Both the position numbers and the translations under genes were made by a program. Positions 13,071-63,761 of a stretch of 64,000 nucleotides of DNA are shown in pieces. Numbering within the stretch: position 1 is the stretch's first letter; each line of letters begins with the position of its first letter. This stretch comes from Acidobacteriota bacterium (GTDB lineage Bacteria; Acidobacteriota; Thermoanaerobaculia; Multivoradales; JAHZIX01), in the NCBI GenBank assembly GCA_034211275.1, contig JAXHTF010000010.1:6808-70807 (forward strand), written 5' to 3'. The notes below the pieces were generated by a model. The model was not told the DNA's origin and did not search any database. It saw nothing but the letters and a program-made list of their open reading frames with translations.

Positions 13071-13672
13071 CGATCGATACCCAGCAGGTCGGCGCAATGC
13101 TCGACGGCTTCGTTGAGGGCCTGCTTGAGTTTGTACGTGGCCTTGCGAGACCAGCCGGTGGTGTCGGCGACCTCCTGCGGGGCCAGGCCGTCTCGATAGC
13201 GCAGCTTGTAGTAGAGGTACACTCGCCGGTTGCCGCCACGCAGGCATTCGTCCAGGCGCAGCAGCGCGTCGCGGTCGATGGATTGGCGTTCGGCGTTGGG
13301 GCGTGGGGAGGTGGTGCGCACCTCGTCGATGGGCTCGACGGTGCGCAGCGCGGCGGACCGGCGCCGATTGCTGGCGATGCCGCAGGCTAGATCCCAGAGA
13401 TGGCGCAGCAGAGCCGCCCGGGTCTGGGCGTCCGGCGGGGTGCGCTCGAGGAAATCCCGGAGCACCTTGGCCTCACGCTGGAAGTAGAAGAGGAAGGCAT
13501 CCTGCAGCAGGTCGTCGGGGTCCAGGCCGCCCGGATAGCCGTAGCGGTGGCGTAGACGGACGAAGAGATCCTCCGAAAAGGTGTCGAAGAGCCAGGCGGC
13601 GGCGGAGCGATCCCCGTCCGTGATGCCCGTCAGCTGTCGATGAACTTCCATCGTTTCGTCGTCCTGGCTCAT
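13067..13672 (-). CDS. ECF (sigma-24/sigma-70 family) RNA polymerase sigma factor
   Basis: 201 aa. Region 2 (DLLQDAFLFYF) and region 4 HTH (LAPQEVADTTGWSRKATYKLKQAL). Its stop overlaps the CHAT start. Confidence 0.85.
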   Translation of the reverse strand: MSQDDETMEVHRQLTGITDGDRSAAAWLFDTFSEDLFVRLRHRYGYPGGLDPDDLLQDAFLFYFQREAKVLRDFLERTPPDAQTRAALLRHLWDLACGIASNRRRSAALRTVEPIDEVRTTSPRPNAERQSIDRDALLRLDECLRGGNRRVYLYYKLRYRDGLAPQEVADTTGWSRKATYKLKQALNEAVEHCADLLGIDR

Positions 13673-39457: not shown

Positions 39458-39837
39458 GCCGCTTTCGTCACCAGCCCCGGCGGGTCCGTCGGGCACCCTC
39501 CTTTTCTCGATCCTCACGCCGAGCCGATGCCGATTTGGCAAAGCGAGGCGCGTCTCGGTCACAGATCGGCATGGGGCGCCCCGGGGAGGCCTCCGGCGCC
39601 GGGTGGGATGGCCAGCCTTCTCGGAGGATTCCAACAAGAGCGGAATATCCCGCCCCCAAGCCATCGTTTAGAGTAGAGAATCGGGTCAACAAGCCGGCGC
39701 CCTCGCAGCATCGGATAGACGACCCCTGGAAGAATCTGAAGCAACCGAGTCATAGATCACTGAGTTTTAGATCACCGAGTCTTAGGTCATCGATAGAGAG
39801 CTCGAAGCCTGCGAACGACGCGAGCAGAGGATTGGGT

Positions 39838-43363: not shown

Positions 43364-43500
43364 GATCAGCGTCCGCCTCTGACGCCTGCGAGAATCTTCA
43401 ACTCAGAACGGGCCCCAAAAAGCGACGAGCCCGCGATCGATCGCGGGCTCGGTAGCGCGGCCAGGTAAGGGGCTAGCCGACGGCGGAAGGTCCGCTGGAT

Positions 43501-44898
43501 TCAGCGGGTGCTGGTGCGGGACTCGAGGATCCGGTAGCCGTCGCCCGCATCCATGTGGTCGCCCAGCGGCAGAGAGCGGACGGTGGTCCACTCCTCGCCG
43601 GCGCTTTCCACGTAGAGCAGCTCGTCCTCGCCCTCCCAGGCGATGAGCACGTTCTGGCCGGACTCGGAAACGAAGATGGCGGAAGCCGGGTCCGCGAGGG
43701 CGGGCAGCGGCCGGTCGGTCACCACGCGCATGCTCAGGATGTGGCTCAGAGCCTGGGGTGGCGCGGCGTCCGGCGTGGGCACCTCGGTGATGTGGAAGTC
43801 GTCGGCGTTGTACAGGCGAGTGACCTCACCGCCGAAGAGGTTGGAGCCGATGTCGATGATGTTGCCGCGGATGGTGCCGGCGAAGGACTCCAGGGCGCCG
43901 GTCCACTCGCGGCCGATGTCGATGATGTTGCCGCGAATGCCGCCGCCCAGGAAGGAGACGTTCTGCTGGTTGAGGTTGCGGCCGATGTCGATGATGTTGC
44001 CGCGGATGGTACCGGCGAAGGCTTCCAGATCCCCACTATCGAACTTGAAGCCGCTGTCGAGAATGGTCTGCTCGACGCCGTCCGCCAGCAGCCCCAGCTC
44101 CGCCGGCAGCACCGTGATCTCCAGGGAAAGGAAGCGGCCGCTGGAGGCGTCGGTGAAGCCGATCACCACGGAGCGATGCTCCAGGCCCGAGTGCAGGGTG
44201 GGCATGCGGGCGAAGTCTTCCGTCACCGCCGCCAAGGGGCCGCCGTCGTCAACCATGTGGAAGTCGTTGAGGCGGAAGATCAAAGGCTCGGTGTTGGGGT
44301 AGGAGCCGTTGTCCAGCACGATGGGGGAGTACAGGACCTCGGTCTCGTCGGCGCCTTCCTCCCACCACACCAGGTGCAGCACCGCCCGGTGCAGGGACTG
44401 CGGCTCGCCATCCACATCCACGGTGTAGTTGTCGTGGGTGATGGCCAGCCGCGGCGAGCCCTTGAGGGCGAAGAAGTTGCTCATGATGACCAGCGGCTCG
44501 GACCAGGTCTCACCGTCGAAGCTGATCAGGTTGAGCATCCGGTGGATGACGTTGCGCCGGCTCTCCCACACCAGGAAGACGGTGCCGGAGCGATCTTCGA
44601 AGACCAGCGAGGACGAGCCTTCGAGATCCCCGAACGCGTCGTCGGTACCGGGTACCAGGAGTCGGCGGGTCTCAGCGCCGGGCTGGGCGATCTCCAGGGC
44701 CAGAACCGAGGCTTCCGCGGCGGCGCCGCTGCTCTGCGGGAAGAGCTCGCCGTAGGTTCCGGAGAACACCGAATAGAGCTCGCCTTCGGAGCCCAGGGCA
44801 ATCTGGCCGCGCTCCGCCGCCGGGGCGGCGGAGACGCCGGTAGCGCCGGCGAGGAGCAGGCCGATGAGAGCGAAAACGAAGAGGGAAGAAAAGCGCAC
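43501..44898 (-). CDS. secreted hypothetical protein, paralog A (internal GNIIDIG-type tandem repeats)
   Basis: GTG start 4 nt after the upstream stop. Signal peptide MRFSSLFVFALIGLLLAGATGVSA. About 35-40% identical to the product of 47814..49226 along its full length. Three 22/23-codon tandem repeats. Confidence 0.55.
   Translation of the reverse strand: MRFSSLFVFALIGLLLAGATGVSAAPAAERGQIALGSEGELYSVFSGTYGELFPQSSGAAAEASVLALEIAQPGAETRRLLVPGTDDAFGDLEGSSSLVFEDRSGTVFLVWESRRNVIHRMLNLISFDGETWSEPLVIMSNFFALKGSPRLAITHDNYTVDVDGEPQSLHRAVLHLVWWEEGADETEVLYSPIVLDNGSYPNTEPLIFRLNDFHMVDDGGPLAAVTEDFARMPTLHSGLEHRSVVIGFTDASSGRFLSLEITVLPAELGLLADGVEQTILDSGFKFDSGDLEAFAGTIRGNIIDIGRNLNQQNVSFLGGGIRGNIIDIGREWTGALESFAGTIRGNIIDIGSNLFGGEVTRLYNADDFHITEVPTPDAAPPQALSHILSMRVVTDRPLPALADPASAIFVSESGQNVLIAWEGEDELLYVESAGEEWTTVRSLPLGDHMDAGDGYRILESRTSTR
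43846..44046 (-). repeat. imperfect 66/69-bp tandem repeat x3 inside secreted paralog A (encodes the xGxIRGNIIDIGxN motif)
   Basis: Copies of GCCGATGTCGATGATGTTGCCGCG begin at 43846, 43912 and 43981. Confidence 0.7.
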
Positions 44899-44902
44899 TG
44901 GG

Positions 44903-45913
44903 TTAGGCCTTGATGTTGATCAGCGGGCGGATGTCCACCGCGAGCAGAAAATTGACGATCTCCGGCGAGTCCGGGTAGTACTCCCGTTGCAGCTCCAGGA
45001 GGTAGTCCCGGGCCGTTTCGGCGTCGCCGCTCAGATTAGCGGCTTCCCCGAGCAGGAAGAGGGCATATTTGATCGACTCGGAGTCGCTCACGCGATGGGC
45101 CAGGGCGAGAGCCCGGGTGCCATGGCGTAGGGCGTCGCGATGCCGACCGGCCTCGATGTGGGCGTAGCAGAGGCTGAGGTGCGGGTATGCCTGGAAGCCG
45201 CGGGCCTTCAGCCGGCGGAGCATGCGCAGGCCGCGGTAGAGCAGCTCGAAGCCCTCTTCCAGGCGGCCTTGGACGACTCGGCAGTAGCCAACGTTCTCCA
45301 GCAGAATGGCGCGCTGCACGCTGGGCATGGGCTCGAACAGGCGCAGAGCCACGTCGTACTCGGTGCAGGCTTCCTCGAAGTAGCTTTCCGCCATCAACAG
45401 GTTGCCGATGCGGTTGTGGCTGGAGGCGATCCAATCCGGCCGGCCCAGCAGCTCGGAGAGGTCCAGAGCGGTGCGGGCGTAGAACAGGCCCTTCTTGTAC
45501 TGCTTGGTCCGCTCGTGGATGCGGGCGATGTTGTAGGCGGCCAGACGGCTGTTCTCCAGATCCTTCCGGGCGGTGAGAATGCAGCGCAACTGCTGGAGCG
45601 GCTCCTGGGGATCCATGATCTCGATGGCCACGGCAGCACGGTTGCAGAAAGCCCGGTCCTGGAGTGTGCTGTCGCCGAGGCGGCGAGCGGTCTCCAAGGC
45701 CTCGTCGAAGAGCCGATAAGCCTCGCCGAAGTGGCCGCCGTTGAGGGCGTCCAGGCCAGCTTCACGGAGGCTTTCATAAACCTCGCGAGTGTCGCCGGCA
45801 ACCATCTCCGGATGCTCCAGCCCCGGCAGCTCGTCCGAGAGCAGGGGGTGTTGCGGTCGGCCCGAATTCGGGTGGACGGGCTCGTTGGCTTGCGGGAAGC
45901 TGACGACACTCAT
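44903..45913 (-). CDS. cytoplasmic TPR-like helical repeat protein, paralog A
   Basis: Start ATG overlaps the stop of the XRE gene (ATGA). No signal peptide. Helical repeats. Paralogous to 46837..47817 (shared C-terminus ...LLGEAA.L.GD...AR.Y...LQ..YYPD......L..VD.R...N.KA). Confidence 0.55.
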   Translation of the reverse strand: MSVVSFPQANEPVHPNSGRPQHPLLSDELPGLEHPEMVAGDTREVYESLREAGLDALNGGHFGEAYRLFDEALETARRLGDSTLQDRAFCNRAAVAIEIMDPQEPLQQLRCILTARKDLENSRLAAYNIARIHERTKQYKKGLFYARTALDLSELLGRPDWIASSHNRIGNLLMAESYFEEACTEYDVALRLFEPMPSVQRAILLENVGYCRVVQGRLEEGFELLYRGLRMLRRLKARGFQAYPHLSLCYAHIEAGRHRDALRHGTRALALAHRVSDSESIKYALFLLGEAANLSGDAETARDYLLELQREYYPDSPEIVNFLLAVDIRPLINIKA

Positions 45914-46305
45914 GCCTTTTGCTCCTTGCGGTCGGCCTCGCGGGGCGCCGCCGGCTCCGTGCCGTCGGTGAGGGCTTGGGCTCGCTTGAAGGCCACGAAC
46001 TCACTCACTTCCCGCTGGGCATCCTGGGGCAGGGAGTTGAATTGGTTGACCAGGTTGACGTCTCGAACGGAGAAGCTGTCCTGGGCCATCTCGTCGAAGA
46101 ATTCGCCGATGCCCATGCCGAACTGCGCCAGGATCTTGAACAGCGTGTCGAGGCTGACCCGATATTCGCCCTTCTCCATGCGGGAGAGGTCGGATTGCTG
46201 GATGCCGATTCGTCCGGCGAGCTCGGTCTGGGTCAGGCTGCGCTGTTTGCGCAGCTGACGAATCTTCTGACCGACGAGCTGTACCTGGCGGATTTTCTGG
46301 GTCAT
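45910..46305 (-). CDS. XRE family helix-turn-helix transcriptional regulator
   Basis: HTH QRSLTQTELAGRIGIQQSDLSRMEKG. Start set at ATG 46305 (AAGG SD). The track ORF extends to 46383. Confidence 0.7.
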   Translation of the reverse strand: MTQKIRQVQLVGQKIRQLRKQRSLTQTELAGRIGIQQSDLSRMEKGEYRVSLDTLFKILAQFGMGIGEFFDEMAQDSFSVRDVNLVNQFNSLPQDAQREVSEFVAFKRAQALTDGTEPAAPREADRKEQKA

Positions 46306-46836
46306 AGCGTTCTGCCTTCGCTCAAGACTTCCATGCTCGAAACGTTCGCGCTCAGTTCCGGTGCCCGGGGGCGTGGAGTTCACTGAGCGGATAGACTTAG
46401 AGAGTACGGAGTTTAAGGGCGCGCGGGCTATGTGTCAACCCCATAGCCCCGTCTTCCCGCCCACCGGCGCTCCGGTCGTGCTCAACGAAGCTTACTGCGC
46501 CTGATAAACTAGAGCTAGTCGGGAGGAGTTTGCGGAAGAATCGTTGACACTCTCCGAGATGCTGTCGTAGCATGAAGTGAGTCATCGAGTTTCGCAGCAA
46601 TTGACAGCCTCGCGACGAGCGGGAGAGTATTGAGAGCTGCTGTGCTATGCGGCGCCGCAATGTTTCGGCCGGAGCTCGACAGGAATGGACGAGTCTCGCA
46701 GGCAGATTTTTTCGGCAGCCCATCGAGGATCCACTTTCTCGAGCAGCCTAAAAAGAGCGGAGAGATCCGTCTACGGGATTCCAAAAACCGGGAATTCCAA
46801 GAGCACAGCCCTCTCGGGTGAAGAAAGCTGAGGCCC

Positions 46837-47817
46837 ATGCCCCAATCAACAGAGCCCCGATCGACCGAACGCCAGGATGCCGAGCTCCAAGCCAGTAAGC
46901 CCAGCATGCAGGCCAACGACGCCATGAGCCCGCCAAGCCACTACGAGGCGATCAAGGAGCAGGCTCTCGACTGCATGCGCGAAGGGCGCCTGCGCGAGGC
47001 CTTGAGCCTCTTCGACCGGGCATTGGCGCTGGCGGGGGAGCTCGGAGATTCCAATTTGGTGGATCGGGCCCTGTGCAACCGCTGTCGAGTCGCCATCGAG
47101 CTGGGCAGCAGCCGGCGAGAGCTCGGCGAGCTGGGCAAGGTGTTGTTGCGCAATCGGGACCCGGAGATTCGCTTCCTCGCCGCCTACAACCTGACCCGGG
47201 CTCATCTGCTGCGCAAAGACGCCGACAAGGCGTTGTTCTATGGCGGCGTCGCCCGGCAAGAGGGCGAGCGGGCTGGCAAGGCCGGATTGGTCTCGGCGGC
47301 ACACAACGGCATTGGGCTGGCGTTGCTCGCCTCGAGCTACTTCGAGCAGGCGGAGGCGGAGTTCGAACAGGCTTTGGGGATGTTGCCGGAAGATCATCGC
47401 CGCCGGCGCGCAGTCATCCTCGACAACTACGGTTACTGCAAGATCATCCGCGGGTCGGTGCCGGAAGGCTTCCAGGCGCTCTTCGAGAGCCTGCGCACCC
47501 TCTGCCGCACCGGCGAGTTGTGGTTCGAGATGATCACCCGAGTCAGCCTTTGCTTCGCCTATCTGGAAGTGGACAAATATCGGGCGGCCTTGCGCCACGG
47601 GCGCCGGGCGCTGGAGATGGCGGAGCGCTTCGAGGACCGTTCGACCCAGAAGTCGGCCCTCTTCTTGCTGGGAGAGGCGGCCAAGCTCGCCGGCGATGAC
47701 TTCGGAGCTCGCCGATACTTTTCCCGGCTTCAGGAGGTCTACTACCCTGACGCTGATTATCTGCCCGACATGCTGATGGTGGTGGACGCCCGCAGCATGG
47801 TGAATCTGAAGGCATGA
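46837..47817 (+). CDS. cytoplasmic TPR-like helical repeat protein, paralog B
   Basis: Paralog of 44903..45913. Its stop overlaps the start of the downstream secreted paralog (ATGA at 47814-47817). Confidence 0.55.
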   Translation: MPQSTEPRSTERQDAELQASKPSMQANDAMSPPSHYEAIKEQALDCMREGRLREALSLFDRALALAGELGDSNLVDRALCNRCRVAIELGSSRRELGELGKVLLRNRDPEIRFLAAYNLTRAHLLRKDADKALFYGGVARQEGERAGKAGLVSAAHNGIGLALLASSYFEQAEAEFEQALGMLPEDHRRRRAVILDNYGYCKIIRGSVPEGFQALFESLRTLCRTGELWFEMITRVSLCFAYLEVDKYRAALRHGRRALEMAERFEDRSTQKSALFLLGEAAKLAGDDFGARRYFSRLQEVYYPDADYLPDMLMVVDARSMVNLKA

Positions 47818-49226
47818 AGATGTTCAAGCGCTACCCCCTTCTGACTACGCTTTTCGCCGTCGGCCTCGCCCTCGTGGTTTGCGGGACGGCTCTCGCCGCC
47901 GAGTCCACCGCGGTGCTCGACCACCAGGGGACTCTCTACACCCTGCTCAGCGGTCGCCGTGGCGATCTCTTCACCGGGGTCAAAGGTCCGGCGGCCAATG
48001 CGCCGGTGCTCGCCCTGGAGATTCGTCAGCCGGGAGAGACTCCCGAGGACACGGAAATTCGTCGGCTGCTGGTGGCGGACACCGGTGATGCCGCGCAGGA
48101 AGAATCCGCCAACCTGGTGCTGGAAGAGGCGGCCGGCACGGTCTATGTCGTCTGGTCCCGAATCCCTGCCGAAGGCCCGGTCGAGCTGCGGGTCTCCGGA
48201 TTGGTAGAGGATCAGTGGTCCGAGCCGGTGAGCTTGGAGGCCATGGGCGACCTGACCGTAGCGCCGCAGCTCTTGGTCACCCGGGATCGTATGGCCAAGC
48301 CGGACCCCGACACTGGAGTGCTGCGGAGCACCGCCCGCACCGTTTTGCATTTGCTGTGGGCCGAGGATGCCGCCGAGGGGGAGCGAGTGCTGTACTCGCC
48401 GCTGGTGCTGGAAGACGGCGCCTACGTCGGCGAGGCGCCGCGGATGGTGCTCAACGACTTCGACCCCACCACGACGCCGGGGGACAAGGGCGCGACCTCC
48501 ATCAGCGCTCCGACCCTCGCCGCCGGAGTCGACAATCAATCGGTGATCGCCGGCTTCGTCAACATGGCCACCGGTCGCCAGCTGAGCATCGAGCTGCGCA
48601 TGCTGCCCTTTGCCCTGGGCACCTTGGCCCGCGACGTTCGCGACTTCATCCTCGACGAAGGGGTCGGCATCGTCGGTCCCGGAAGCGTTGAGTCCCTCGC
48701 CGGCGGCGTCGGCGGCATGATCATCGAGACGGGCCGTGAGTTCCATCCCGGCGTACGCTTCTACTTCGCCTCGGTGGCGCAGGAGGCGGTGCTCGAAGAG
48801 GCCCTGGCCAGTGACGGCCCCGGCGTCGGATTGCAGAGCTTGGCCGGGGGAGTCGGCGGCATGATCATCGAGGTCGGCTCGCGGTTCTTCGGCACCGATG
48901 GCCTGGACCGCAACTTCGTCGCCTCGCGCCTTAGCCTGGTGGAGATCGGCAGCGCCGTCGAGCTCGATCCGGACACTCTGGTCAATCACCTCTTGCGGGT
49001 CTACGTGGTCTCCGACCGCGAAGCTCCGGACGTCGGCGGCGACGCCGCTTTGTTGGTGTCGGAGGATGGCGAGGAGGGCATGGTGGCCTGGCCCGAGGGC
49101 GAGGAGCTGCGCTATCGCGAGACCAGCGGTGCGATTTGGTCGGACGTGCGGGCCGTGCCTCTGGACGAGGGCTTCGATCTCGAGCAGGCCCGCCAGCTGC
49201 TCCGGCAACGTCTCCAGCGGCGCTGA
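47814..49226 (+). CDS. secreted hypothetical protein, paralog B
   Basis: Signal peptide MKMFKRYPLLTTLFAVGLALVVCGTALA. Shares conserved blocks with 43501..44898 (VLALEI.QPG, VLHL.W.E, VLYSP.VL..G.Y). Two GGVGGMIIE.G repeats. Confidence 0.55.
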   Translation: MKMFKRYPLLTTLFAVGLALVVCGTALAAESTAVLDHQGTLYTLLSGRRGDLFTGVKGPAANAPVLALEIRQPGETPEDTEIRRLLVADTGDAAQEESANLVLEEAAGTVYVVWSRIPAEGPVELRVSGLVEDQWSEPVSLEAMGDLTVAPQLLVTRDRMAKPDPDTGVLRSTARTVLHLLWAEDAAEGERVLYSPLVLEDGAYVGEAPRMVLNDFDPTTTPGDKGATSISAPTLAAGVDNQSVIAGFVNMATGRQLSIELRMLPFALGTLARDVRDFILDEGVGIVGPGSVESLAGGVGGMIIETGREFHPGVRFYFASVAQEAVLEEALASDGPGVGLQSLAGGVGGMIIEVGSRFFGTDGLDRNFVASRLSLVEIGSAVELDPDTLVNHLLRVYVVSDREAPDVGGDAALLVSEDGEEGMVAWPEGEELRYRETSGAIWSDVRAVPLDEGFDLEQARQLLRQRLQRR

Positions 49227-49407
49227 GCAACGCCCGCCCGGCTAGTCTCGTCCAGCTAGCTTGATCTGCTAGCCTCCCCTGACTCGCGCCTCGAGGGGGC
49301 GGTAGCGGTTGAACCATTCGTCCGAGCCAGCGGTTTTTTATCGGCCGCTGGCTCTTCTGCTTTCAGCCCGCGGCGCCCGGCGGTAGAGACTCCGGAGCGG
49401 CGGCGGT

Positions 49408-50199
49408 GTGCCTCGGGAGCCATCGGTCTTGACCCAACACCTCTTTCTTCTCCGCGAGCTCGTGCGTCGGGACTTCCGTGGCCGGTACGCTGGTAGCGTC
49501 CTGGGCTTTTTGTGGTCCTTCGTGCAGCCTCTCTGGCAGCTCCTCCTCTTCAGCTTCATCTTCGGTAGCCTGATGAAGATCTCGCCGCTGGGAGAACGCA
49601 CCGACAATTTCGGCGTGTTTCTCTTCTGCGGGCTGCTGCCCTGGACGGCCTTCCACGAGGGCATTGTCCGCGCGTCCACGGCGATCACCGAGAACGCCAG
49701 CCTGGTCAAGAAGCTCAACTTCCCCTCCGAGCTGCTGATCCTGGCGGTGGCGTTGGGGGCTTTGCTCCACGAAGCCATCGCCGCGGCGATCTTCGTCGTG
49801 GTCCTGGTGCTGATGGGTGAGCTGGTGCTCACGGGCCTGCCGCTGCTGTTGGTGGCCCTGCCGCTGCAGCTGGCGCTGACCCTCGGCCTGGGGCTCCTCC
49901 TGTCGGCGGTCCACGTCTTTTTCCGCGACACCGCGCAGGTGGTCACCATGGTGTTCACCGGCTGGTTCTACTTCACCCCCATCGTCTATCCCATGAGCCT
50001 GGTGCCCGAGCGCTTCTTGCCCTGGATCGAGGCCAATCCCCTGACCGCCTTGGTGGCCCTGTATCGGGCTGCCTTCCTCGGCGGCCCGCCGGTGGACCCT
50101 TCGGGAGTGCTGCTGCTGGCGCTTTGGTCGGTGGCTTCGGCTGCTCTCGGCTTATTTCTCTTCTTGCGCTTGAAGCCCAGCTTCGCCGACGAAATCTAG
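49408..50199 (+). CDS. ABC-2 type exporter permease (Wzm/KpsM/TagG-like)
   Basis: 263 aa, 6 TM segments. N-terminal RELVRRDFRGRYAGSVLGFLW motif typical of ABC-2 polysaccharide/teichoic acid export permeases. GTG start. Confidence 0.75.
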   Translation: MPREPSVLTQHLFLLRELVRRDFRGRYAGSVLGFLWSFVQPLWQLLLFSFIFGSLMKISPLGERTDNFGVFLFCGLLPWTAFHEGIVRASTAITENASLVKKLNFPSELLILAVALGALLHEAIAAAIFVVVLVLMGELVLTGLPLLLVALPLQLALTLGLGLLLSAVHVFFRDTAQVVTMVFTGWFYFTPIVYPMSLVPERFLPWIEANPLTALVALYRAAFLGGPPVDPSGVLLLALWSVASAALGLFLFLRLKPSFADEI

Positions 50200-50283: not shown

Positions 50284-53133
50284 TCAGTTGTCGGTGACGC
50301 TGGTGGTCCAGCCGCCCAAGGTCCCTGCCTCGAAACCGTCGGTAAAGACCACCGTCGCGCTGCCGCTGACGTTCACCGTCAAGCTGTCGCTGGCGGCGCC
50401 GCAGGCGCTGTTGGAGACCTCAACGGTCTTGGCGCCGTTGGAGAACCAAGCCACCGTCAACTGCGAGGTGCTGGAGGATCCGACGCCTCCGGAGGTGGTC
50501 CAGGTCCAGCCGTCGGCGTTGGGGGTGCAGTTGGTGGTGGAGGCGTTGAAGGTCACCGCGTGCCCCCTGTCGGCGGTCGTGGGGCCGGTGACGGTCACCG
50601 ACGGCTCCGGGGCTCCTCCGACGTTGATGATCGGATGGCCCTCGTAGATGTCCGAGGCGGAGTTGCGGCGGACCCGCAGCCGCGGGTGGAAGGTGCCGGT
50701 GGAGGTGTAGGTGAAGAGAGTCACCGGCGCGGGATTGTCTTCGTCCTCGAAGCTGCCGTCGCCGTCCCAGTCATAGTCCCAGAAATCCGGCTCGCCGATG
50801 CTCTCGTCGATGAAGGTGATGGGGACGTTGACGTCGGCGAAGCAAGTTCCGGCGGCGCAGAAGAGCGAGGCGCGGAAATCGGCGATGACCGGCTCCGCGT
50901 TGCTCGCGTCCACCGCCAAGATGGCGCTGGTGCGGGGCACCTCGGCGCAGTTGCGCACCATCACCTGGACGTCGTAGGTGGCGGCGACGTCATAGGTGTG
51001 AACCGGATTCGGGCCGTCGACGGGGTCGCTGGTCCAGCCCTCGAAGCCGTCGTTGTTGGGGCCGCCGCCGGGGTTGTCGCCGAAGCTCCAATTCCACTCC
51101 GTCGCTCCGGACACGCCGGCGTGGAATTGCACCGTGCCGGTGGCCGGAGGATCCGGCTGGCCGTCGTAGGTGGGCGTGAAGGCGCCGTTGGCGGGCAGCG
51201 GATCCAGTGGATTCAGGGTCACCGCCGCGGAGGTCGCGGTGTCGATGCCGGCGGAGTTGGTGACCGTGACCTCGGCGGTGTAGGTGGTGCCGGTGGTCTG
51301 CCCCGGCGTCGAGGTCCACACGAAGGGGTTGACGTTGCCGCCGGAGGCCACCACGCCCCCGCCGTTCTGGCTGATCTGCCAGCTGAACGTCAGCGGCGGT
51401 TGCCCGGTGACATTCTGGGCGGTGAAGGTCACCGGCTGGCAGAGCAGTGCCGGGTTGGGCGATGAGGCGACGCCGGTGACCACCGGCTCCGGTTCCAAGA
51501 CCGTCAGATTCTTCTGGGTGCTGTTGCTGCCGGCTCCGTTGCTGGCTTGGAGAGCGACGGTCTTGCTGCCGGCGCCGTCAAAGGCGATGTTGGCCGGGTT
51601 CTGACTGGTCGAGCCGCCGGGATTGCCGTCGGGGAGGAAGTCCCAATCCCAAGCGGTCGGTCCGCCGGTGCTGGAGTCGAAGAAGTCCACCTGGGTGCCG
51701 GGATAGATCTGCGCCGGGGTCCAGGTGAAGTCCGGGTTCGGCGGCGCGCCGCCGGTGCGCCGGTGGACGTCGAAGATGGCATGGCCTGCGCGGAAAAAAT
51801 AGTCGCCGGAGAACTTGCCCACTCGCGGCGCGACCCGATTGAAGCCGTGGACTCCGTTCTGACGGTAATACCAGCCCCAATAGCTCACCGGTGCGCCGTT
51901 GATGACCACGGTGCCCTGGGGGCTGATATCCGTCGGCGAAGAGGGATTGCGAACGTCGTAGAGCCATTCCTTCTGGTTGCCGCTCTGGCAATAGCCGCTG
52001 TCGCCGAAATAGAGGAACGGAATATCGCCGGTGGAGCGGCTGAAGGTCACCAGCGGGTCGCCCACCGGATCCATGCTCCGGGACCACATGGGAGAGCCGG
52101 GAGAGCAGAAGCCATCGGTGATGCAGGAGACATCGTAGATGCGCGCCTGGGTGTCTGTGCGAGCGGCCAGGTAGTAGTCGGCGCCGTCCTGCCAGAGCGC
52201 GACACCGTAGATGCTGTCGCCGCTCAAAGCGTCCATCACCATCGAGGGCTGGGACGGGTTGGAGACGTCCCAGATCTCGAAGCCGCGGGGCGAGAAGGTG
52301 GAGCTGAGAACGATGAAGTCGCCGGCGCCGTCAAGGTAATTGGCGCGGATGCGCGAGCCGATCTTGCCGAGGTAGATCCCCGGGCAGAAGGTGGTGCCGG
52401 GCTGGTTCTCGTTGCAGCGGCCGGTGAGGTTCATGGCGGCGGTCATGTCGTAAGCGAAGACGCCACCCTCGCGGTTGGCGGCGACGAAGACATAGTCGCG
52501 GGAGTCGATGGTGGTGGTGTAGACGGCCCGCACCTCGCGGCTGGCGAGGGTGCCGGTGTCCTGGTACTTGATCCTCGGAGTGTCTTTGATGCTGGTATCT
52601 ACGATGGCGACGCCGAGGCCATAGACGCCGCCGATGGCGACGCGGTCCGCCTTGCCGGGCGGAGCGTCGATGTCGGTGAAGACCGAGAAGGCGTGAGCGT
52701 CGGGAGTCCAGTTGAACGGCAGGCTGTTGATGCCCGAATCGAGGAGAGCGGAGGGGGAGCCGGGATTGAAGCGGGCATCCCAAATCTGGAAGCGCATGCT
52801 GGTGGCAGCAAAGACGAAATTCTGCTCTACATCCAGCGACAGCCAGTAGGGGTTCAGCTCGAAGCTGCCCACGCCGTTGAAGTCGGTGGAGTCGCGATTG
52901 CCCGGCAGGGTCGTTGTGGAGGCGGGCTCTAGGCCGTTCCACAGCGCCGACGGGACCGGTACGGCGGGAGTGGCAAAATCACAGTAATTGCAGGTGGTGT
53001 CGCAGTTCTGAGCCACCGCCGGCAGCGCTGCCGAAGCCGTCAGAATCAAGACTGCAGCCAGAGTCAGCCGTCGTCGGGAGGCCGGCCGGGCTTTGGGTAC
53101 AGCGCATGCAAAGAGTTTCGAGGTCCAGCACAT
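50284..53133 (-). CDS. giant secreted protein: N-terminal LVIVD-repeat beta-propeller followed by multiple PKD domains
   Basis: Start set at ATG 53133 (AGGAG 6 nt upstream, signal peptide ...LTLAAVLILTASAALPAVA). LVIVD-type blades (GVAIVDTS, GVFAYDMT, FEIWDVSNPSQP, ARIYDVS, WLYDVRNPSSP). PKD signatures (WDWDF.DG, WNWSFGDN, HTY). Paralogous over about 800 aa to 57561..62324. Confidence 0.65.
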   Translation of the reverse strand: MCWTSKLFACAVPKARPASRRRLTLAAVLILTASAALPAVAQNCDTTCNYCDFATPAVPVPSALWNGLEPASTTTLPGNRDSTDFNGVGSFELNPYWLSLDVEQNFVFAATSMRFQIWDARFNPGSPSALLDSGINSLPFNWTPDAHAFSVFTDIDAPPGKADRVAIGGVYGLGVAIVDTSIKDTPRIKYQDTGTLASREVRAVYTTTIDSRDYVFVAANREGGVFAYDMTAAMNLTGRCNENQPGTTFCPGIYLGKIGSRIRANYLDGAGDFIVLSSTFSPRGFEIWDVSNPSQPSMVMDALSGDSIYGVALWQDGADYYLAARTDTQARIYDVSCITDGFCSPGSPMWSRSMDPVGDPLVTFSRSTGDIPFLYFGDSGYCQSGNQKEWLYDVRNPSSPTDISPQGTVVINGAPVSYWGWYYRQNGVHGFNRVAPRVGKFSGDYFFRAGHAIFDVHRRTGGAPPNPDFTWTPAQIYPGTQVDFFDSSTGGPTAWDWDFLPDGNPGGSTSQNPANIAFDGAGSKTVALQASNGAGSNSTQKNLTVLEPEPVVTGVASSPNPALLCQPVTFTAQNVTGQPPLTFSWQISQNGGGVVASGGNVNPFVWTSTPGQTTGTTYTAEVTVTNSAGIDTATSAAVTLNPLDPLPANGAFTPTYDGQPDPPATGTVQFHAGVSGATEWNWSFGDNPGGGPNNDGFEGWTSDPVDGPNPVHTYDVAATYDVQVMVRNCAEVPRTSAILAVDASNAEPVIADFRASLFCAAGTCFADVNVPITFIDESIGEPDFWDYDWDGDGSFEDEDNPAPVTLFTYTSTGTFHPRLRVRRNSASDIYEGHPIINVGGAPEPSVTVTGPTTADRGHAVTFNASTTNCTPNADGWTWTTSGGVGSSSTSQLTVAWFSNGAKTVEVSNSACGAASDSLTVNVSGSATVVFTDGFEAGTLGGWTTSVTDN

Positions 53134-53531
53134 AAAGACTCCTTCGATCAGCCATGGGGGGGCGATCTGCGGAGGTCGCGACAAGCGCGCGTTCCAGTTC
53201 ATTCAAGCAAGTCGATCCCGCGCACCGGGAGGAATTTATGGATTATGCCATTATCCTATTGCTCGGCGCAATCCTGTCTTCTTCGTTCTTCAGCCGCCAA
53301 CGGGGGCCGCCACTCTCGACGCACAGTGAAGGCGGAGAGGCGACGGTGCTTGACCTCGAAGCTGCTTCTGTTACCATTCGCCCTCTGGAGGCGGCGGCTT
53401 CAAGCCCATCGCTGCTGCCGGAGACCTCGCCGAAGCGAATATCGCAAAACAGCATAGCTCCGCAGACCATCCAGCCACCTCAGCTTTCAATGCCCGACGC
53501 GCTTCGGGCCCTCCAGCAAGGGAGACGATCC

Positions 53532-55310
53532 ATGATTCCAGCCCTCTCGACTTGGCCGCTGCGCGGCCGAATCGCCGTCGTGGCTTTCCTGCTCAGTGCG
53601 CTCTTCGCCCTGCCCCTGGCGCTTCCCGCGGAAGGCCAAATGGGGATGCAGCGGGGAGAGGACCCCATGGACGACCTCGGCTCCTTGGAGCCGGAGGACG
53701 GGAAATGGCTTACCGACGACGAGGGTGAGGAGTACTTCGTCAAGAAGTTGCCGAAGAAAGAGGGGACCTACCAGTACTACGGAGAGAACCAGGTGCGCTA
53801 CAAGCATTGGTTCATCTTCGATCTGGTCAAAGAAGATGACGAGAACCTCTACATCAAGATCTACAAGCCCCGCGAGCACCGCCCTGGGTTCACCCGAGAA
53901 GAGGTGGAGGCCCGGCGAGCCAAGGAGGAAGCGGCCGTCGCCGCCAGCTACCAGGTCGAGGTGGGGGAGAGCGACCGCTTGACCTACATCCCCTTCGATC
54001 AGGGGTTGCCGCGCCGGGGCATGTGGCGCAACGGTTTCGACATCGCCGATGTCAACGGCGACGGTCATCTGGACATCGTTCACGGCCCGGCCCGCAAGGG
54101 GGCTCCGGTGCCCCGCATCTTCCTCGGGGACGGCGAGGGCAATTGGAAGCTCTGGCGCGAGGCCCGCTATCCCCGGGCGCCCTACGACTACGGTGACGCC
54201 GCTGCTGCCGATTTCGATGGTGACGGCCTGACCGACCTGGCTTTCGGTTTCCACCTGCGGGGGCTGCTGGCACTTCGCCAGAGCAGCCCCGGTGTCTTCG
54301 AGGTGTGGAGCGAGGGCCTCGATCTGCAGGTTCCCGGCGCTGGCTCCGACGCTTCCGGCTTTTCCACTAGGGCCATCGAGCTCGCGGACTGGAACGGCGA
54401 CGGTCGTATCGACATCTTGGCCGCGGGGGAGGGCCCCCGGCCCGCCGGGCAAAAAGGCGACAAGACCACCGGCATGGTCTCTTCCCAGGCCTTTGGGGTC
54501 GCCGTCTATCTCAATCACGGGGACGGCACCTGGGAGCGCCTCGGCGCCGACAAGAAGACCTCCGGGCTGTTCGGGGACTACCTCGCCTATGGCGACGTCA
54601 ACGCCGACGGGCGCCTGGACCTGGTGACCTCTTCGAATCTCTTGGGGCGTCAGAACATCCTGCACCTCGGGAGCGAGGACGGAGAGTGGGAGCGCTACAC
54701 GGTGGATCAAATACGCCCCAACGCCTATCTCCAGTCCGTGGGGATTGCCGACTTCGACGGCGACGGTCGGGACGACATCGCCATCGGTTACGCCAGCTGG
54801 CAGCTGAAATTCTGGCGCACCGGCCTCGACGTGCTGTTCTCTCGCCCCGACGATACCTGGGAGCGGCGCACTCTCTTCCTCGAGGAGAGTCGGCTGAGCC
54901 TATGGGCGCTCGGTACCGGTGATGTCGACGGAGACGAGAACGCGGACATCGTCGTGTCCACCGGTGACGGCGGGGTGATGGTGTTCTTGGGCACCGGCAA
55001 GGGCACCTTTACGCGGGAAGCGGCCACTTCTTTGCACAGCGCCCGCGGCTGCCGGGGTTACGCAGTGCGCTTGGCGGATCTCAATGGCGACGGGAAGGAC
55101 GAAATCGTGGCGGCCTTCGCCGACGAGGGCTCGGCTCTGCCCATGACGGAGTTCCCCGTCACCTGCACCAGCGCCGGAGCGATCATGGCTTGGCGTACCG
55201 AATCGTCCCAGGCCGAGAAGGCTGCGGCTGACTCTGCGCAAACCGAGGCTTCGCAAAAAGATCTGGGAGCGAGCGAAGGCCTTGACATGTCGACTGAGGA
55301 AGGCCTATAG
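53532..55310 (+). CDS. secreted FG-GAP/VCBS-repeat (integrin-alpha-like beta-propeller) protein
   Basis: Seven Ca-binding repeat motifs (DVNGDGHLD, DFDGDGLTD, DWNGDGRID, DVNADGRLD, DFDGDGRDD, DVDGDENAD, DLNGDGKDE). Signal peptide after ATG 53532 (AGGGAGA SD). An alternative upstream ATG lies at 53238. Confidence 0.65.
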   Translation: MIPALSTWPLRGRIAVVAFLLSALFALPLALPAEGQMGMQRGEDPMDDLGSLEPEDGKWLTDDEGEEYFVKKLPKKEGTYQYYGENQVRYKHWFIFDLVKEDDENLYIKIYKPREHRPGFTREEVEARRAKEEAAVAASYQVEVGESDRLTYIPFDQGLPRRGMWRNGFDIADVNGDGHLDIVHGPARKGAPVPRIFLGDGEGNWKLWREARYPRAPYDYGDAAAADFDGDGLTDLAFGFHLRGLLALRQSSPGVFEVWSEGLDLQVPGAGSDASGFSTRAIELADWNGDGRIDILAAGEGPRPAGQKGDKTTGMVSSQAFGVAVYLNHGDGTWERLGADKKTSGLFGDYLAYGDVNADGRLDLVTSSNLLGRQNILHLGSEDGEWERYTVDQIRPNAYLQSVGIADFDGDGRDDIAIGYASWQLKFWRTGLDVLFSRPDDTWERRTLFLEESRLSLWALGTGDVDGDENADIVVSTGDGGVMVFLGTGKGTFTREAATSLHSARGCRGYAVRLADLNGDGKDEIVAAFADEGSALPMTEFPVTCTSAGAIMAWRTESSQAEKAAADSAQTEASQKDLGASEGLDMSTEEGL

Positions 55311-55597
55311 TTCCATGAAGTAGCCGACTTAACTGCGGGATTCCAATAGGTGCTTGTTTTTACCTGGTGCCCGCGGGAGAGGCTGCTGACCAAGAAGATC
55401 ACTAGACCTTTTAGGTTTTCGAGTTTTTGACCGGGAGGTGATGCGCCCTTAGTCTTTGAGAGGAGAAGGAGATTCACTGCGAGATTAGGTTCGCCGATGG
55501 GCATAGTGTCCGTCCGGTGGCCGTAAGACTTTCGTAGTGCGTTTTTACCGGGTCCCGTCGTTGGGACCAAAAAAAATTGAATTGGAGACTGTTAGTA

Positions 55598-56920
55598 ATG
55601 AGGAAGTTCATCGCCTCTATCGCCATCGTCGGGCTTCTCGTGCTCGGCGGCTCGGCGTTCGCCGAGATCGGCGCCATCGACTCCGTGCCTGCGGCTACCC
55701 TGCTGTTGCCGTACTTCGAGGTCGCTCCGGCTGCCGGTGTCACCACCCTGTTCTCGATCAACAACGCTTCGGCCGCCCCGGTCCTGGCCCACGTCACCCT
55801 GTGGACCGACCTTTCCCGGCCTACGCTTGACTTCGACGTCTACCTCACCGGTTTCGACGTCGTGACCATCAACCTGGGCGACCTGTTCACCACCGGCGCG
55901 ATCCCGCAGACCGGCCCGAACTTCGACCCGGGCGACGACGCCATCTCCCCGAACGCTCCGGGTGAGTTCTCCTTCGCGGATGTCAACTTCCCGGCTTGCG
56001 CTTTCCCGCTGCCGGCCAACATCCCGGGTTCGCTGCTCACCTACATCCAGAACCTGCACTCCGGCGGTGCGGCTCCGGCCGGCTTCGCCAACAGCGGTCT
56101 CTGCGGTGGTGTGGACTACGGTGACGGCGTCTACCGCGGTTACGTGACCGTCGATGTCGCCAACGCCTGCTCCCTCGAGTTCCCGGGCAGCCCCGGTTAC
56201 TTCGTGAACGGCGGTCAGGGCATCGCCGGCAACGCCAACGTCCTTTGGGGCGACTACTTCTGGGTCGACGTGCCGAACGCGTTCGCCCAGGGTGATTCCC
56301 TCGTCCACATCGAGGCCACCGACACCGGCTTCTGGACGCCTGGCGACTACACCTTCTACGGCCGTTACGTCGGCTACGACGGCAGCGACAACCGCGAGCC
56401 GCTGGCGACCACCTGGGCCGCCCGCTACTTCGCCGGTACCGTCGGTGCCTTCGATGACGACACTGACGTCGTCTGCTGGCGCGACACCGGTCGCGACGAG
56501 AGCGGCTTCTTCACTTGCGGCTCCGCCGTTGCTGGCGCCGTGTCCGTGGATCCGTTCCCGCTGTCCCAGAACCAGATCGTCATCTTCGACGAGCAGGAGA
56601 ACCCGGTTGTCGTGGAGGGCTCGCCCTTCTCGCCGCCGCCGACCCTGGAAGGCGTCCTTCCCTGCCCCTACGAGGCGACTCGGGCTGACGCCAACGACTT
56701 CGGTTCGATCTTCGACTTCGGTTGGTTCTACATGAACCTCAACACCACGACCGGTAGCGTCGTCGATCCGATCAAGCAGTCCTTCGTGACCACCGTGCAC
56801 AGCGCCTCCGGCCTGTTCAGCGTTGGTTACCAGGCGGTTCACCTCGACAGCGCGCTGGCCAAGACCTTCACGGTCACCACCGCTCCGAGCGACGTGATCC
56901 TGCCGCTGGGTGTCGAGTAA
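55598..56920 (+). CDS. secreted hypothetical protein, candidate abundant cell-surface (S-layer-like) protein
   Basis: Signal peptide MRKFIASIAIVGLLVLGGSAFA. Preceded by about 280 bp of AT-rich sequence and followed by a strong intrinsic terminator. The N-terminal region (LLLPYFEV..TLFSINNAS..HVTLWTD) is related to two segments in the C-terminal part of 57561..62324. Confidence 0.55.
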   Translation: MRKFIASIAIVGLLVLGGSAFAEIGAIDSVPAATLLLPYFEVAPAAGVTTLFSINNASAAPVLAHVTLWTDLSRPTLDFDVYLTGFDVVTINLGDLFTTGAIPQTGPNFDPGDDAISPNAPGEFSFADVNFPACAFPLPANIPGSLLTYIQNLHSGGAAPAGFANSGLCGGVDYGDGVYRGYVTVDVANACSLEFPGSPGYFVNGGQGIAGNANVLWGDYFWVDVPNAFAQGDSLVHIEATDTGFWTPGDYTFYGRYVGYDGSDNREPLATTWAARYFAGTVGAFDDDTDVVCWRDTGRDESGFFTCGSAVAGAVSVDPFPLSQNQIVIFDEQENPVVVEGSPFSPPPTLEGVLPCPYEATRADANDFGSIFDFGWFYMNLNTTTGSVVDPIKQSFVTTVHSASGLFSVGYQAVHLDSALAKTFTVTTAPSDVILPLGVE

Positions 56921-56988: not shown

Positions 56989-57560
56989 CTGTTTCGGCCC
57001 CACCGCGGCCGACTTCTCAGCGAGCTTTCTGTACCCGCACTTTGGGCGATTCCTGCTCTTCCATTGCTCGCTCCGATACCTCTCCGCCAAGAATCCGATC
57101 TCCCGGCCTGTTCCCTTTGCCCTCGGTCGTCCGCATCGCCTCCCTCGTTACTTGGTAAAAGGCGCCAATTTCTTCCAGCGAAGATCTCCCGCCGGCAGCA
57201 CTTTGTTGATACGGTTATCAACTATCCCGCGAGAGGGCAGATCAAAAATAGCCAAGACGGGGCTGGACTGGGCGCTTTAAGCTGTGGCAGCATAGAGCCC
57301 TCCCGCAAGCGGCGACGAGCTTCGGTTCGTCAGAAAGCCCAGGAGCCCCCTAGGTCAGGCTTTGCAGAGGGGGTTCCGCCCCTTCGCGAGATTCCGGGCC
57401 CCGCTTGCGTGAATCGGTCGATTTTGCTATAAAAGCATCTCGACTCTTGAAGAGCCTACTGTCCGCTGTAGCCATCATGATGCCGAGCGTCATGTCGCCT
57501 TCTTTTCATCGTCTCTTCTCGATCTGCTCGCGTTTTCGATCCACAGGAGCCAAGTTGGTT

Positions 57561-62324
<4,764 letters not shown>

Positions 62325-62444: not shown

Positions 62445-63761
62445 ATGAAACAAGTTGTGGTCGAAGCCAGCGGGCTCAGCAAGACCTACCGTGTCTACCA
62501 GCGGCCGTGGGATCGCCTGGTGGAAGCCTTGTTGCGCCGACCCCGTCACAAAGAGTTCCGCTCTCTCCAAGACATCGACTTGCAGCTGGCAGCGGGAGAC
62601 TCGCTGGGCATCATCGGCGAGAACGGCGCCGGCAAGAGCACCTTGCTCAAGATTCTCGCCGGAGTCGCCGCTCCCACCAACGGCGATGTCCAGGTACAGG
62701 GCAAGGTCGCCTCGATCCTGGAGCTGGCCTCCGGCTTCCACCCGGAATTCACCGGCCGCCAGAACATTCAGCTCAACGCTGCCATGCTGGGTCTGAGCCA
62801 GAAAGAGGTGGAGGCCAAGACTCCCAACATCATCGCCTTCAGCGAGCTCGGGGACTTCATCGACCAGCCCGTCAAGGTGTACTCCACCGGCATGGCGATG
62901 CGCCTGGGTTTTGCCATCGCGACCCAGGTGGAGCCGGACGTGCTGATCATCGACGAGGCCCTGTCGGTGGGGGACGGCTACTTCCAGAAGAAGTGCGTCG
63001 ATCGGCTGATGGAGTTCACCCGCGGCGGTGGCACCCTACTCTTCTGCTCCCATGCGATGTACTACGTCACTTCCTTCTGTCAGCGAGCCCTGTGGCTCAA
63101 GGACGGCAAGATCGCGGCCCTGGGGCCGGTGGAGGAGGTGGTGCGCAGATATGAGAACTTCCTCATGCGCAAGCAGCCGCAGGACCCGGTGGAGGTGGCC
63201 GAGCGGCCTGCTGGGCCGGCTCGCATCGTGGAAGCCAGGCTGCTCGATGACGGGCAGGCCGGCGGAACGGCGCCGGTCCTCTACCGGCATCTCCAGCCCC
63301 TGAGTTTGGAAGTGAGCTGGGAGACCACCGAGCCCCAGCGAGCCTTCCACCTGGGCGTGGGCATCGACCGCACTGACAGCGTACAGGTAGCCGCTCTCTC
63401 GACCTACCACGATGGATTGGAGCCTTTCCGGGGCCGCCATCGGTATTCTGTGCGGCTGGACATTCCGCAGCTTCCGATGCTCAAAGGGGAGTACTCCCTG
63501 TATGTCTTCCTGATGGACGAGGAGGCGCTTCACCCCTACGACTCCAAGGTCGTCCACGGCGCCTTCGAAGTGGCCACGGAGGGCTATCGCTTCGGCCTGA
63601 TCCACATCCCCCATCGCTGGCAAACCGAGGAGAGTTCGGGCTCCGTGGTGACGCTGTCCGCCCCTGTGGAAGCGCCTTCTGCGGAGACGGCCGCCTTCGA
63701 GGCCGGCTCCCTGGAAGCTGGCGGGGCGGCTCTCTCGGCGAGCTCAAGGAGTCGCTGGTAG
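62445..63761 (+). CDS. ABC transporter ATP-binding protein (Wzt/KpsT/TagH-like) with a C-terminal extension
   Basis: Walker A GENGAGKST, signature YSTGMAMRLGFA, Walker B VLIIDEAL, H-loop. A C-terminal ~190-aa extra domain as in Wzt-type O-antigen exporters. It is the partner of the permease at 49408..50199 despite 12 kb of separation. Confidence 0.8.
   Translation: MKQVVVEASGLSKTYRVYQRPWDRLVEALLRRPRHKEFRSLQDIDLQLAAGDSLGIIGENGAGKSTLLKILAGVAAPTNGDVQVQGKVASILELASGFHPEFTGRQNIQLNAAMLGLSQKEVEAKTPNIIAFSELGDFIDQPVKVYSTGMAMRLGFAIATQVEPDVLIIDEALSVGDGYFQKKCVDRLMEFTRGGGTLLFCSHAMYYVTSFCQRALWLKDGKIAALGPVEEVVRRYENFLMRKQPQDPVEVAERPAGPARIVEARLLDDGQAGGTAPVLYRHLQPLSLEVSWETTEPQRAFHLGVGIDRTDSVQVAALSTYHDGLEPFRGRHRYSVRLDIPQLPMLKGEYSLYVFLMDEEALHPYDSKVVHGAFEVATEGYRFGLIHIPHRWQTEESSGSVVTLSAPVEAPSAETAAFEAGSLEAGGAALSASSRSRW

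Follow-up and report, generated by a model that had tools for sequence, protein, structure and literature searches.

A gene cassette for an XRE-family regulator, a cytoplasmic tetratricopeptide repeat (TPR) protein and an exported protein is conserved across the class Thermoanaerobaculia and occurs in a duplicated, inverted form in a 64-kb stretch of Acidobacteriota DNA (contig JAXHTF010000010.1; the whole stretch is called the window below). The cassette is real, conserved and uncharacterised, and the inverted duplication in the window is a lineage-specific elaboration of it. The interpretation which we favour, with a probability of about 40%, is that of an autoregulated XRE repressor, a ligand-binding TPR protein that would modulate it, and a beta-propeller protein as the co-evolving exported partner.

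Gene organization of the duplicated module

The first-pass annotation, made from the sequence alone, had proposed five genes, all of which are present in the table of open reading frames (ORFs). On the minus strand, the gene for the XRE-family helix-turn-helix (HTH) regulator (45910..46305, 131 aa) is followed by tprA (44903..45913, 336 aa), encoding a cytoplasmic TPR protein, and by secA (43501..44898, 465 aa), encoding an exported protein. The second pair, tprB (46837..47817, 326 aa) and secB (47814..49226, 470 aa), lies on the plus strand and specifies proteins of the same two kinds. The proposed junctions could be read directly from the sequence. The XRE stop codon overlaps the tprA start in an ATGA (...AAGGCATGA), an ATGA likewise joins the tprB stop to the secB start (...AAGGCATGA), and tprA and secA are separated by 4 nt (TAA-CCCA-GTG), the start codon of secA being GTG. 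A longer GTG ORF would extend the XRE gene to 46383; the ATG at 46305 is preferred because the homologues begin at ATG.

Pairwise alignment confirmed that the A and B copies are paralogous gene by gene. The identity is 41% over 325 aa between tprA and tprB (E 9e-79) and 35% over 465 aa between secA and secB (E 2e-67). Both TPR proteins end in N.KA, as had been noted (NIKA in tprA, NLKA in tprB). No further copies of either family were found in the 64-kb window.

Conservation and duplication of the cassette

Linkage was counted in 80 metagenome loci (given L numbers here), which had been retrieved through the TPR gene alone. A sec homologue lies directly downstream of the TPR gene on the same strand in 59 of 59 testable loci, so that the co-occurrence of the two families, which had been proposed for a check across genomes, is found wherever it could be scored. 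The TPR stop and the sec start overlap or are at most 15 nt apart in 73 of 80 pairs, with a median of 7 nt. An XRE gene is located directly upstream of the TPR gene in 62 of 64 loci. Further out, a gene for an ABC-2 permease diverges from the XRE gene (30 of 33 loci), and a GHMP-kinase gene converges from beyond sec (17 of 24). In the usual locus, the XRE, TPR and sec genes thus form one run; the genes for the ABC-2 permease, an FG-GAP protein, a 447-aa protein and a giant PKD protein point away from it on one side, and those for an extracytoplasmic function (ECF) sigma factor, an anti-sigma factor, a redoxin, an M23 peptidase and the GHMP kinase point towards it on the other.

Of the 16 loci that are complete from ABC-2 to GHMP, 14 contain a single cassette and two are tandem doubles, each with its own XRE gene. 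The divergent A/B layout of the window also occurs in L001, L002, L009 and the more distant L013. What the first-pass annotation described as a module pivoting around an XRE regulator is a rearrangement specific to this lineage; a single cassette is the norm. In neighbour-joining trees, the A and the B clade are each monophyletic both for TPR and for sec, in agreement with the proposal that the two-gene modules are paralogous units, and the two trees are congruent. In L019, L020, L035 and L049, the tandem copies group in clades of their own, so their duplication was independent of that in the window, and L005 and L010 show a third layout, tpr-sec-XRE-tpr-sec. From the trees we conclude that the TPR-sec pair was duplicated as a unit more than once, at least twice independently. 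The divergent layout of the window is an old duplication of the class-wide Thermoanaerobaculia cassette. The B copies evolve faster: between the window and L001, secB is 46% and secA 64% identical.

The pair lacks an adjacent XRE gene in L014, L006 and L073, which makes the TPR-sec pair, and not the XRE gene, the conserved core. In L073, the pair adjoins a gene for a GT4 glycosyltransferase. In the other two, which are unrelated contigs, it follows a gene for a patatin-like phospholipase (L014 5424-9350, L006 7362-11320), and in L014 two phasin genes also precede it. The patatin neighbourhood may point to another setting for the pair, perhaps one connected with lipids.

The XRE regulator and its candidate operators

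The regulator is a bona fide HTH_3 protein (51.5 bits against a Pfam cutoff of 23, 1e-13). In an alignment of 72 orthologues, the HTH is nearly invariant and is followed by a conserved C-terminal extension of ∼35 aa; the near-invariance fits a conserved operator. Both features by which we compared it with XRE/Cro-C1 regulators were present, namely the HTH_3 match above threshold and a dyad at its own promoter as a candidate operator. In silico, the protein is thus shown to be a dedicated local regulator with a predicted 17-bp dyad operator at its own promoter. In L013, the public annotation calls a 145-aa ORF without a Pfam match (6343-6780, minus strand), while the actual XRE gene, with a product 69% identical to that of the window, is located at 6418-6807 on the plus strand.

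Upstream of XRE genes throughout the class, a promoter-like TTGACAG-N17/18-TA(G/C)NAT is followed by the 17-bp dyad (T)ATGCCA-N3-TGACATA. TTGACAG is present in 41 of 56 such regions, and 52 of the 56 match the dyad in at least 10 of 14 positions, as compared with about 4% of shuffled sequences. When 584 kb of loci were scanned with a position weight matrix (PWM) derived from the class dyads, nearly all matches lay upstream of XRE genes. In the window, the PWM gives three matches of at least 12 bits against about 0.4 expected per shuffled window.

Within the 530-bp spacer between the two modules, promoter-like sites face each operon; 0.5 such sites would be expected by chance in this region. 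That of the XRE-tprA-secA operon is TTGACA-17-TAAACT (46410..46445, minus strand), and its −35 box is overlapped by candidate operator O1, the dyad TATGGGGTTGACACATA (46429-46445, 12.5 bits). That of tprB-secB is TTGACA-18-TAGCAT (46544..46573, plus strand), and candidate operator O2, the dyad ATGCT-N5-AGCAT (46559-46573), overlaps its −10 box; O2 shares the ATGC-N7-GCAT core and the spacing with the class consensus. Neither O1 nor O2 varies among the window, L009, L001 and L002. The same architecture is present in L013, although the sec proteins of this locus are only 37–44% identical to those of the window (37–64% for the five loci of A/B type). A second invariant block, ATTGACAGCC (46600..46609, plus strand; alignment A2), is similar to the −35 element of the XRE-type promoters of the class; it may belong to a tandem promoter. 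No known RNA families or tRNAs were found in the control region or in the whole window; the sole match, to isrG (E 0.15), is far below the gathering score.

Two further operator-like dyads lie in front of neighbouring surface-protein genes. O3, TATGCCATTATCCTATT (53244..53260, 14.7 bits), is located 42 nt upstream of the start of a gene for a 972-aa PKD-domain protein (PKD972) and is conserved in L009 (7373) and L002 (9022). O4, TATGCTGTTTTGCGATA on the minus strand (53440..53456, 15.2 bits), is located about 76 nt upstream of the likely start, at 53532, of the FG-GAP gene and is conserved in L009 (7569). These sites suggest that the XRE regulon includes the neighbouring surface-protein genes, and PKD972 is a likely member of it in the lineage of the window. 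A near-palindrome between the ECF sigma and anti-sigma genes, GATGCCGATTTGGCAAA (39526-39542), reaches 10.3 bits, is not conserved in L001, L012 or L013 and probably occurs by chance.

The TPR protein

Both tprA (MDY7092042.1, from an Acidobacteriota metagenome-assembled genome, MAG) and tprB match Pfam TPR_12/TPR_2. The family comprises at least 287 clusters at 90% identity, and its best 120 homologues are 275–343 aa long. It had been considered that the TPR proteins might prove to be a well-characterised housekeeping family; Pfam, NCBIfam and sequence searches gave none. At the sequence level the similarity is to generic TPRs only, with RapF (E 1.8e-4) ranking behind many designed or eukaryotic TPRs.

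In the AlphaFold2 model of tprA (pLDDT 89.6), residues 1–37 are disordered and are followed by 15 helices, corresponding to about seven TPRs and a cap. Structure comparison places this model closest to peptide-binding receptors, among them Rap, NprR and the Rap anti-repressor of plasmid pLS20. As judged from the model, tprA resembles these receptors in architecture, which is a resemblance and not proof because subunits of APC, and MalT, score similarly. The residues N91, N128, N167 and N207 are near-invariant and occupy the same helix-A position in four consecutive repeats, TPR2–5. TPR peptide receptors, those of the RNPP group included, share Asn-mediated binding of the peptide backbone as a conserved feature, with N227 of RapF being a strictly conserved Asn of the groove (PMC3601957); the equivalence of our residues to N227 is only putative.

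The extreme C-terminus has the form N-[L/I]-x-A in 118 of 120 homologues (NLHA in 60, NLRA in 26, NLKA in 25 and NIKA in six). Its codons are located at 44903-44914 in tprA and at 47803-47814 in tprB. The overlapping ribosome-binding site of the next gene could account for this motif only in part.

The exported protein

Neither secA nor secB has a match in Pfam, NCBIfam or PADLOC. A word-indexed search with secB had returned eight relatives and suggested a very rare family. This was overturned by an exhaustive profile search: at 50% identity, the representatives numbered 828 at E ≤1e-3, of which 407 reached E ≤1e-30. The best 150 of the 828 are 423–493 aa long, and nearly all of these cover almost the full profile. 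Members with a named source are hypothetical proteins from Thermoanaerobaculia or Acidobacteriota MAGs.

A heuristic test, which is not equivalent to SignalP, detected a hydrophobic N-terminal signal in 172 of 173 sec members and in none of 120 TPR members, so the division into a cytoplasmic and an exported protein is a family-wide property. Lys or Arg occurs within the first 12 residues in 169 of the 173; only two have a lipobox-like sequence, and there is no general twin-arginine motif. The signal peptides are not conserved in sequence. At the other end, 110 of 173 sec proteins terminate in Arg.

These data bear on the idea that the two proteins are a dedicated chaperone pair. The TPR protein would bind the nascent or unfolded propeller precursor, or its signal peptide, in the cytoplasm and keep the precursor competent for export; once the substrate is exported, it might also feed back on the XRE regulator, as do TPR chaperones of type III secretion systems (T3SS). 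Strict one-to-one pairing, tight translational coupling and co-duplication are typical of chaperones and their substrates, TPR grooves bind extended polypeptides, and SctY, a chaperone of T3SS, is matched weakly (E 7e-4 and 1e-2, below cutoff). We nevertheless regard this explanation as rather unlikely, given that substrates with ordinary Sec-type signal peptides, as found here, normally do without a private chaperone. Moreover, class II chaperones of T3SS are about half the size of the TPR protein, no secretion-system genes are linked to the pair, and the SctY matches fall far short of the cutoff for that family.

In its AlphaFold model (pLDDT 77.5, pTM 0.79), secA consists of a Sec-type signal peptide, a beta-propeller body with an inserted four-helix segment (residues 266–355) and a C-terminal helix. 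The sequence FAGTIRGNIIDIG is repeated at residues 294, 317 and 339 of secA, and LAGGVGGMIIExG at residues 295 and 343 of secB. The first-pass annotation had taken such repeats for internal beta-strand repeats; contrary to this, the motif is contained in the segment modelled as four alpha-helices. The exported family is undescribed and is modelled as a propeller with a helical insert.

The insert (secA 256-350, window ∼43850-44130) gave the sole sequence match of the sec profile in the Protein Data Bank, to apolipoprotein A-IV (E 1.8e-4). The secA motifs are spaced by 22–23 residues, but the hydrophobic moments are not above those of shuffled sequences (mean z 0.2–0.8) and the periodicity at lags of 22–23 is weak, so this lead was abandoned. 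The secB orthologue of L001 (P0005, 9934-11169) has 411 aa and lacks about 50 residues from the middle of the insert (alignment A1), which indicates that the insert is at least partly dispensable or variable.

Comparison of the secA model by Foldseek leaned weakly towards sialidases and glycoside hydrolases or lyases of the GH32, GH43 and PL25 families, with NanH as the top match (E 5e-4); the TM scores are 0.28–0.34 and the identity is at most 13%. A degenerate Asp-box-like sequence, S-x-D-G-x-T-W, can be read at residues 126–132 and is shared with the six-bladed sialidase/BNR-like and GH/lyase propellers, from which secA differs by TM values of at most 0.34 and by the inserted four-helix bundle, which has no counterpart there. 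Searched individually, none of 42 sec members matched any Pfam family, and BNR/sialidase was absent even at E ≤1. Membership of the propeller in the BNR/sialidase group is thus not demonstrable. Invariant residues of the family are W111, H175, W178 and Y190; R171 and E180 are near-invariant.

Neighbouring genes

On the secB side, a Wzm-like ABC-2 permease (49408..50199, plus strand; Pfam ABC2_membrane, 7e-21, 75 bits) is encoded by what is the first gene of the run divergent from XRE in canonical loci. It is followed by the gene for the surface protein PKD972 (50284..53202, minus strand; Pfam PKD), with the operator-like dyads just upstream, and by that for the FG-GAP repeat protein (53532..55310, plus strand; Pfam FG-GAP_3, 5.8e-39), which has a signal peptide. 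In canonical loci the FG-GAP gene is located directly downstream of the ABC-2 gene, a synteny seen in about 25 loci. Further plus-strand genes encode a 447-aa protein without a Pfam match (55577-56920), a 1639-aa PKD protein (57405-62324) and a Wzt-type ABC ATPase (62445-63761; ABC_tran 75 bits, Wzt_C 33.5 bits against a cutoff of 30.4). An ABC2_membrane permease and an ATPase with a Wzt_C domain, as in a Wzm/Wzt exporter, are thus both among the neighbours; in the window, a distance of 12 kb that contains surface-protein genes separates the two. Terminator-like hairpins are located directly past the secA stop (43426..43451, minus strand, 11 pairs and a T-run) and between secB and the ABC-2 gene (49324..49354, plus strand, 12 pairs and a T-run).

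An alternative explanation is an operon for envelope biogenesis that does no signalling, in which the propeller, in the periplasm or at the surface, would bind or cleave a glycan together with Wzm/Wzt, FG-GAP and PKD proteins, the TPR protein would be a cytoplasmic scaffold of this pathway and the XRE regulator only a local repressor. In its favour are the conserved synteny, with Wzm-like, FG-GAP, 447-aa, PKD and Wzt genes to one side of the cassette and GHMP-kinase, M23-peptidase and ECF-sigma genes to the other, and the GT4 glycosyltransferase gene next to the pair in L073; a site for sugar binding or catalysis could also be built from W111, H175, W178, Y190, R171 and E180. On the other hand, the fold matches are weak, no BNR or glycosidase match was found among the 42 members, and the strong hairpins separate the modules from the flanking genes. 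The XRE-less pairs behind the patatin genes of L014 and L006 are located away from Wzm/Wzt, and both the coupling at a median of 7 nt and the co-duplication of a cytoplasmic TPR protein with an exported one would be left unexplained. We consider an envelope operon of this kind possible, though unlikely.

The supra-locus is conserved across Thermoanaerobaculia (window 38750-63761; L012, L015, L040, L060, L082 and others). The cassette lies between genes for an ECF sigma factor, a zf-HC2 anti-sigma factor, a redoxin, an M23 peptidase and a GHMP kinase on one side and for Wzm-like, FG-GAP, 447-aa, giant PKD and Wzt proteins on the other. PKD972 is paralogous to part of the 1639-aa PKD protein, each finding the orthologues of the other in phmmer and tblastn searches, and its gene is inserted in reverse orientation between the ABC-2 and FG-GAP genes solely in the lineage of the window. 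Elsewhere in the window we found genes for a 1032-aa CHAT-domain protein (10149-13247, minus strand), a T2SS/T4P-type ATPase (T2SSE and MshEN; 25649-27370, minus strand) and a 918-aa cadherin-like/Big_9 protein (27755-30511, plus strand), the last followed directly by a 1756-aa RHS-repeat protein (30459-35729, plus strand).

Discussion

The mechanism we propose for the cassette starts from the XRE regulator, which would repress its own operon and, in the lineage of the window, also the divergent tprB-secB promoter and the neighbouring PKD and FG-GAP genes. The TPR protein would be a ligand-responsive partner that modulates the regulator. The propeller would be the extracytoplasmic half of the system, either as the source or processor of the ligand sensed by the TPR protein or as the principal output of the pair at the cell surface. 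The pair tprB-secB may represent a diverged second sensor and partner that shares the single XRE regulator.

The closest parallel is the switch of the Bacillus subtilis plasmid pLS20. Its XRE-type repressor, Rco, is antagonised through binding by a separate TPR protein, Rap, and Rap in turn is inactivated by a peptide processed from Phr*, a secreted precursor of 44 aa (PMC7430634). By analogy, the TPR protein may act on the XRE regulator as Rap does on Rco. Both systems have a separate XRE-type repressor and a TPR protein without an HTH; in both, the TPR gene is directly followed by a gene with a secretion signal and the repressor acts, here by prediction, at a divergent promoter region. They differ in that the partner is a 44-aa pre-pro-peptide in pLS20 and a folded beta-propeller of 445–490 aa here, and that pLS20 is a plasmid of Firmicutes whereas our cassette is chromosomal and its hosts are diderm Acidobacteriota; the sequence likeness is that of generic TPRs only. 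The cassette may work like the split Rap/Rco variant.

RRNPP membership was judged by published criteria, according to which the receptor has 250–500 aa and its partner is a propeptide of 10–100 aa (PMC10075063). Four of the five signature features were found (receptor size, TPR content, adjacency and the export signal of the partner), while the small propeptide was not. With the RRNPP(A) systems (Rap-Phr, NprR-NprX, PlcR-PapR, AimR-AimP, Rgg and PrgX) the cassette shares the receptor size (296–343 aa), the TPR superhelix, an adjacent, Sec-exported and co-evolving partner, the repeated duplication of receptor and partner as a cassette, and conserved Asn residues on groove-forming helices. It differs from them in having no small propeptide, no HTH fusion (none among 120 homologues) and no linked Opp-type importer among the window genes scanned, and in being outside their known taxonomic range. 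The effector domain at the N-terminus of RRNPP receptors is an HTH or, in Rap, a three-helix bundle; here the HTH is on a separate protein, and helices 1–3 of tprA would at most be a putative counterpart of the bundle. We do not file the cassette as an RRNPP member, since its partner is no small propeptide, HTH and TPR protein are separate in every case and the hosts are diderm Acidobacteriota. Overall, the interpretation of the first-pass annotation is supported in part.

A ligand of the RRNPP type can come from a full-size exported protein. Enterococcal sex pheromones are cut from the signal peptides of lipoproteins, for example cCF10 from CcfA, and cCF10 is sensed by PrgX. There, receptor and precursor are not known to be adjacent or co-evolving. 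In our cassette, the signal peptides are not conserved and there is no sign of processing.

Several observations weigh against the proposed mechanism. Generic TPR superhelices equal RRNPP proteins in score against the tprA model, and no HTH-TPR fusion, which would serve as a Rosetta stone, occurs among the 120 best TPR homologues. The existence of XRE-less pairs means that the obligatory partner of the TPR protein is sec and not the XRE regulator. O2 scores poorly with the class-wide operator matrix, so that it is uncertain whether the same regulator binds there. The sec partner is a conserved, folded protein of 445–490 aa instead of a propeptide of 10–100 aa; its size and conserved residues (W111, H175, W178, Y190) suggest a function of the propeller's own. 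No oligopeptide (Opp-type) importer was found among the window genes scanned, and in diderm hosts a signal would need to cross two membranes. A search of the locus for a small conserved ORF gave none; in the 530-bp spacer, a 63-aa ORF (46630-46821) is located where the sequence does not align with L001 or L002.

The last point applies equally to a canonical RRNPP system with an overlooked propeptide gene, which we consider, together with a toxin-antitoxin or defence module having the XRE protein as antitoxin, to be highly improbable. The four signature features named above agree with the former, and with the latter the matches of the XRE protein to the antitoxins HipB, HigA and MqsA and to the HTH models of PADLOC. 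These antitoxin matches are all below cutoff (for HipB, 43.6 against 79), so that the type II toxin-antitoxin families did not receive the protein, and the PADLOC and NCBIfam matches on which a defence function might have been based are generic or sub-threshold only. The TPR and propeller neighbours have no match to toxin or defence families beyond generic TPR, and the cassette is chromosomal, stable in its synteny across the class and not on a mobile element. For a small gene there is no space: TPR and sec genes are a median of 7 nt apart, the ABC-2/XRE spacer of about 100–250 nt is filled by promoter and operator, and the only long spacer (window 46640-46836) lacks conservation in L001 and in L002.

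Returning to the autoregulated XRE repressor with its TPR modulator, one may extend the proposal to a Rap/Rco-like switch operating in diderms. The TPR protein would sense a propeller fragment, or an envelope product made by the propeller, and relay it via the XRE regulator to a regulon for surface proteins and glycan export, while duplicated pairs would provide parallel inputs of diverged specificity. In this full form, the scheme is speculative and quite improbable.

In the RRNPP literature cited here, RRNPP-type receptors and the split Rap/Rco variant are described only from Firmicutes and their mobile elements (PMC10075063, PMC7430634, PMC3601957). The same gene logic, consisting of an XRE regulator, a separate TPR protein and a co-evolving exported partner, is found here as a conserved chromosomal cassette across a class of mostly uncultured and poorly studied Acidobacteriota. 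Its exported family spans at least 400 clusters at 50% identity and has neither a Pfam model nor an annotation. Even if the propeller is an envelope enzyme with a helper in the cytoplasm, the propellers with a helical insert and their obligatory TPR partners merit definition as families. If the cassette is indeed regulatory, diderm bacteria would be added to the hosts of this signalling architecture, the giant FG-GAP and PKD surface proteins and a Wzm/Wzt exporter would be defined as a regulon, and the predicted operator could be tested directly in vitro.

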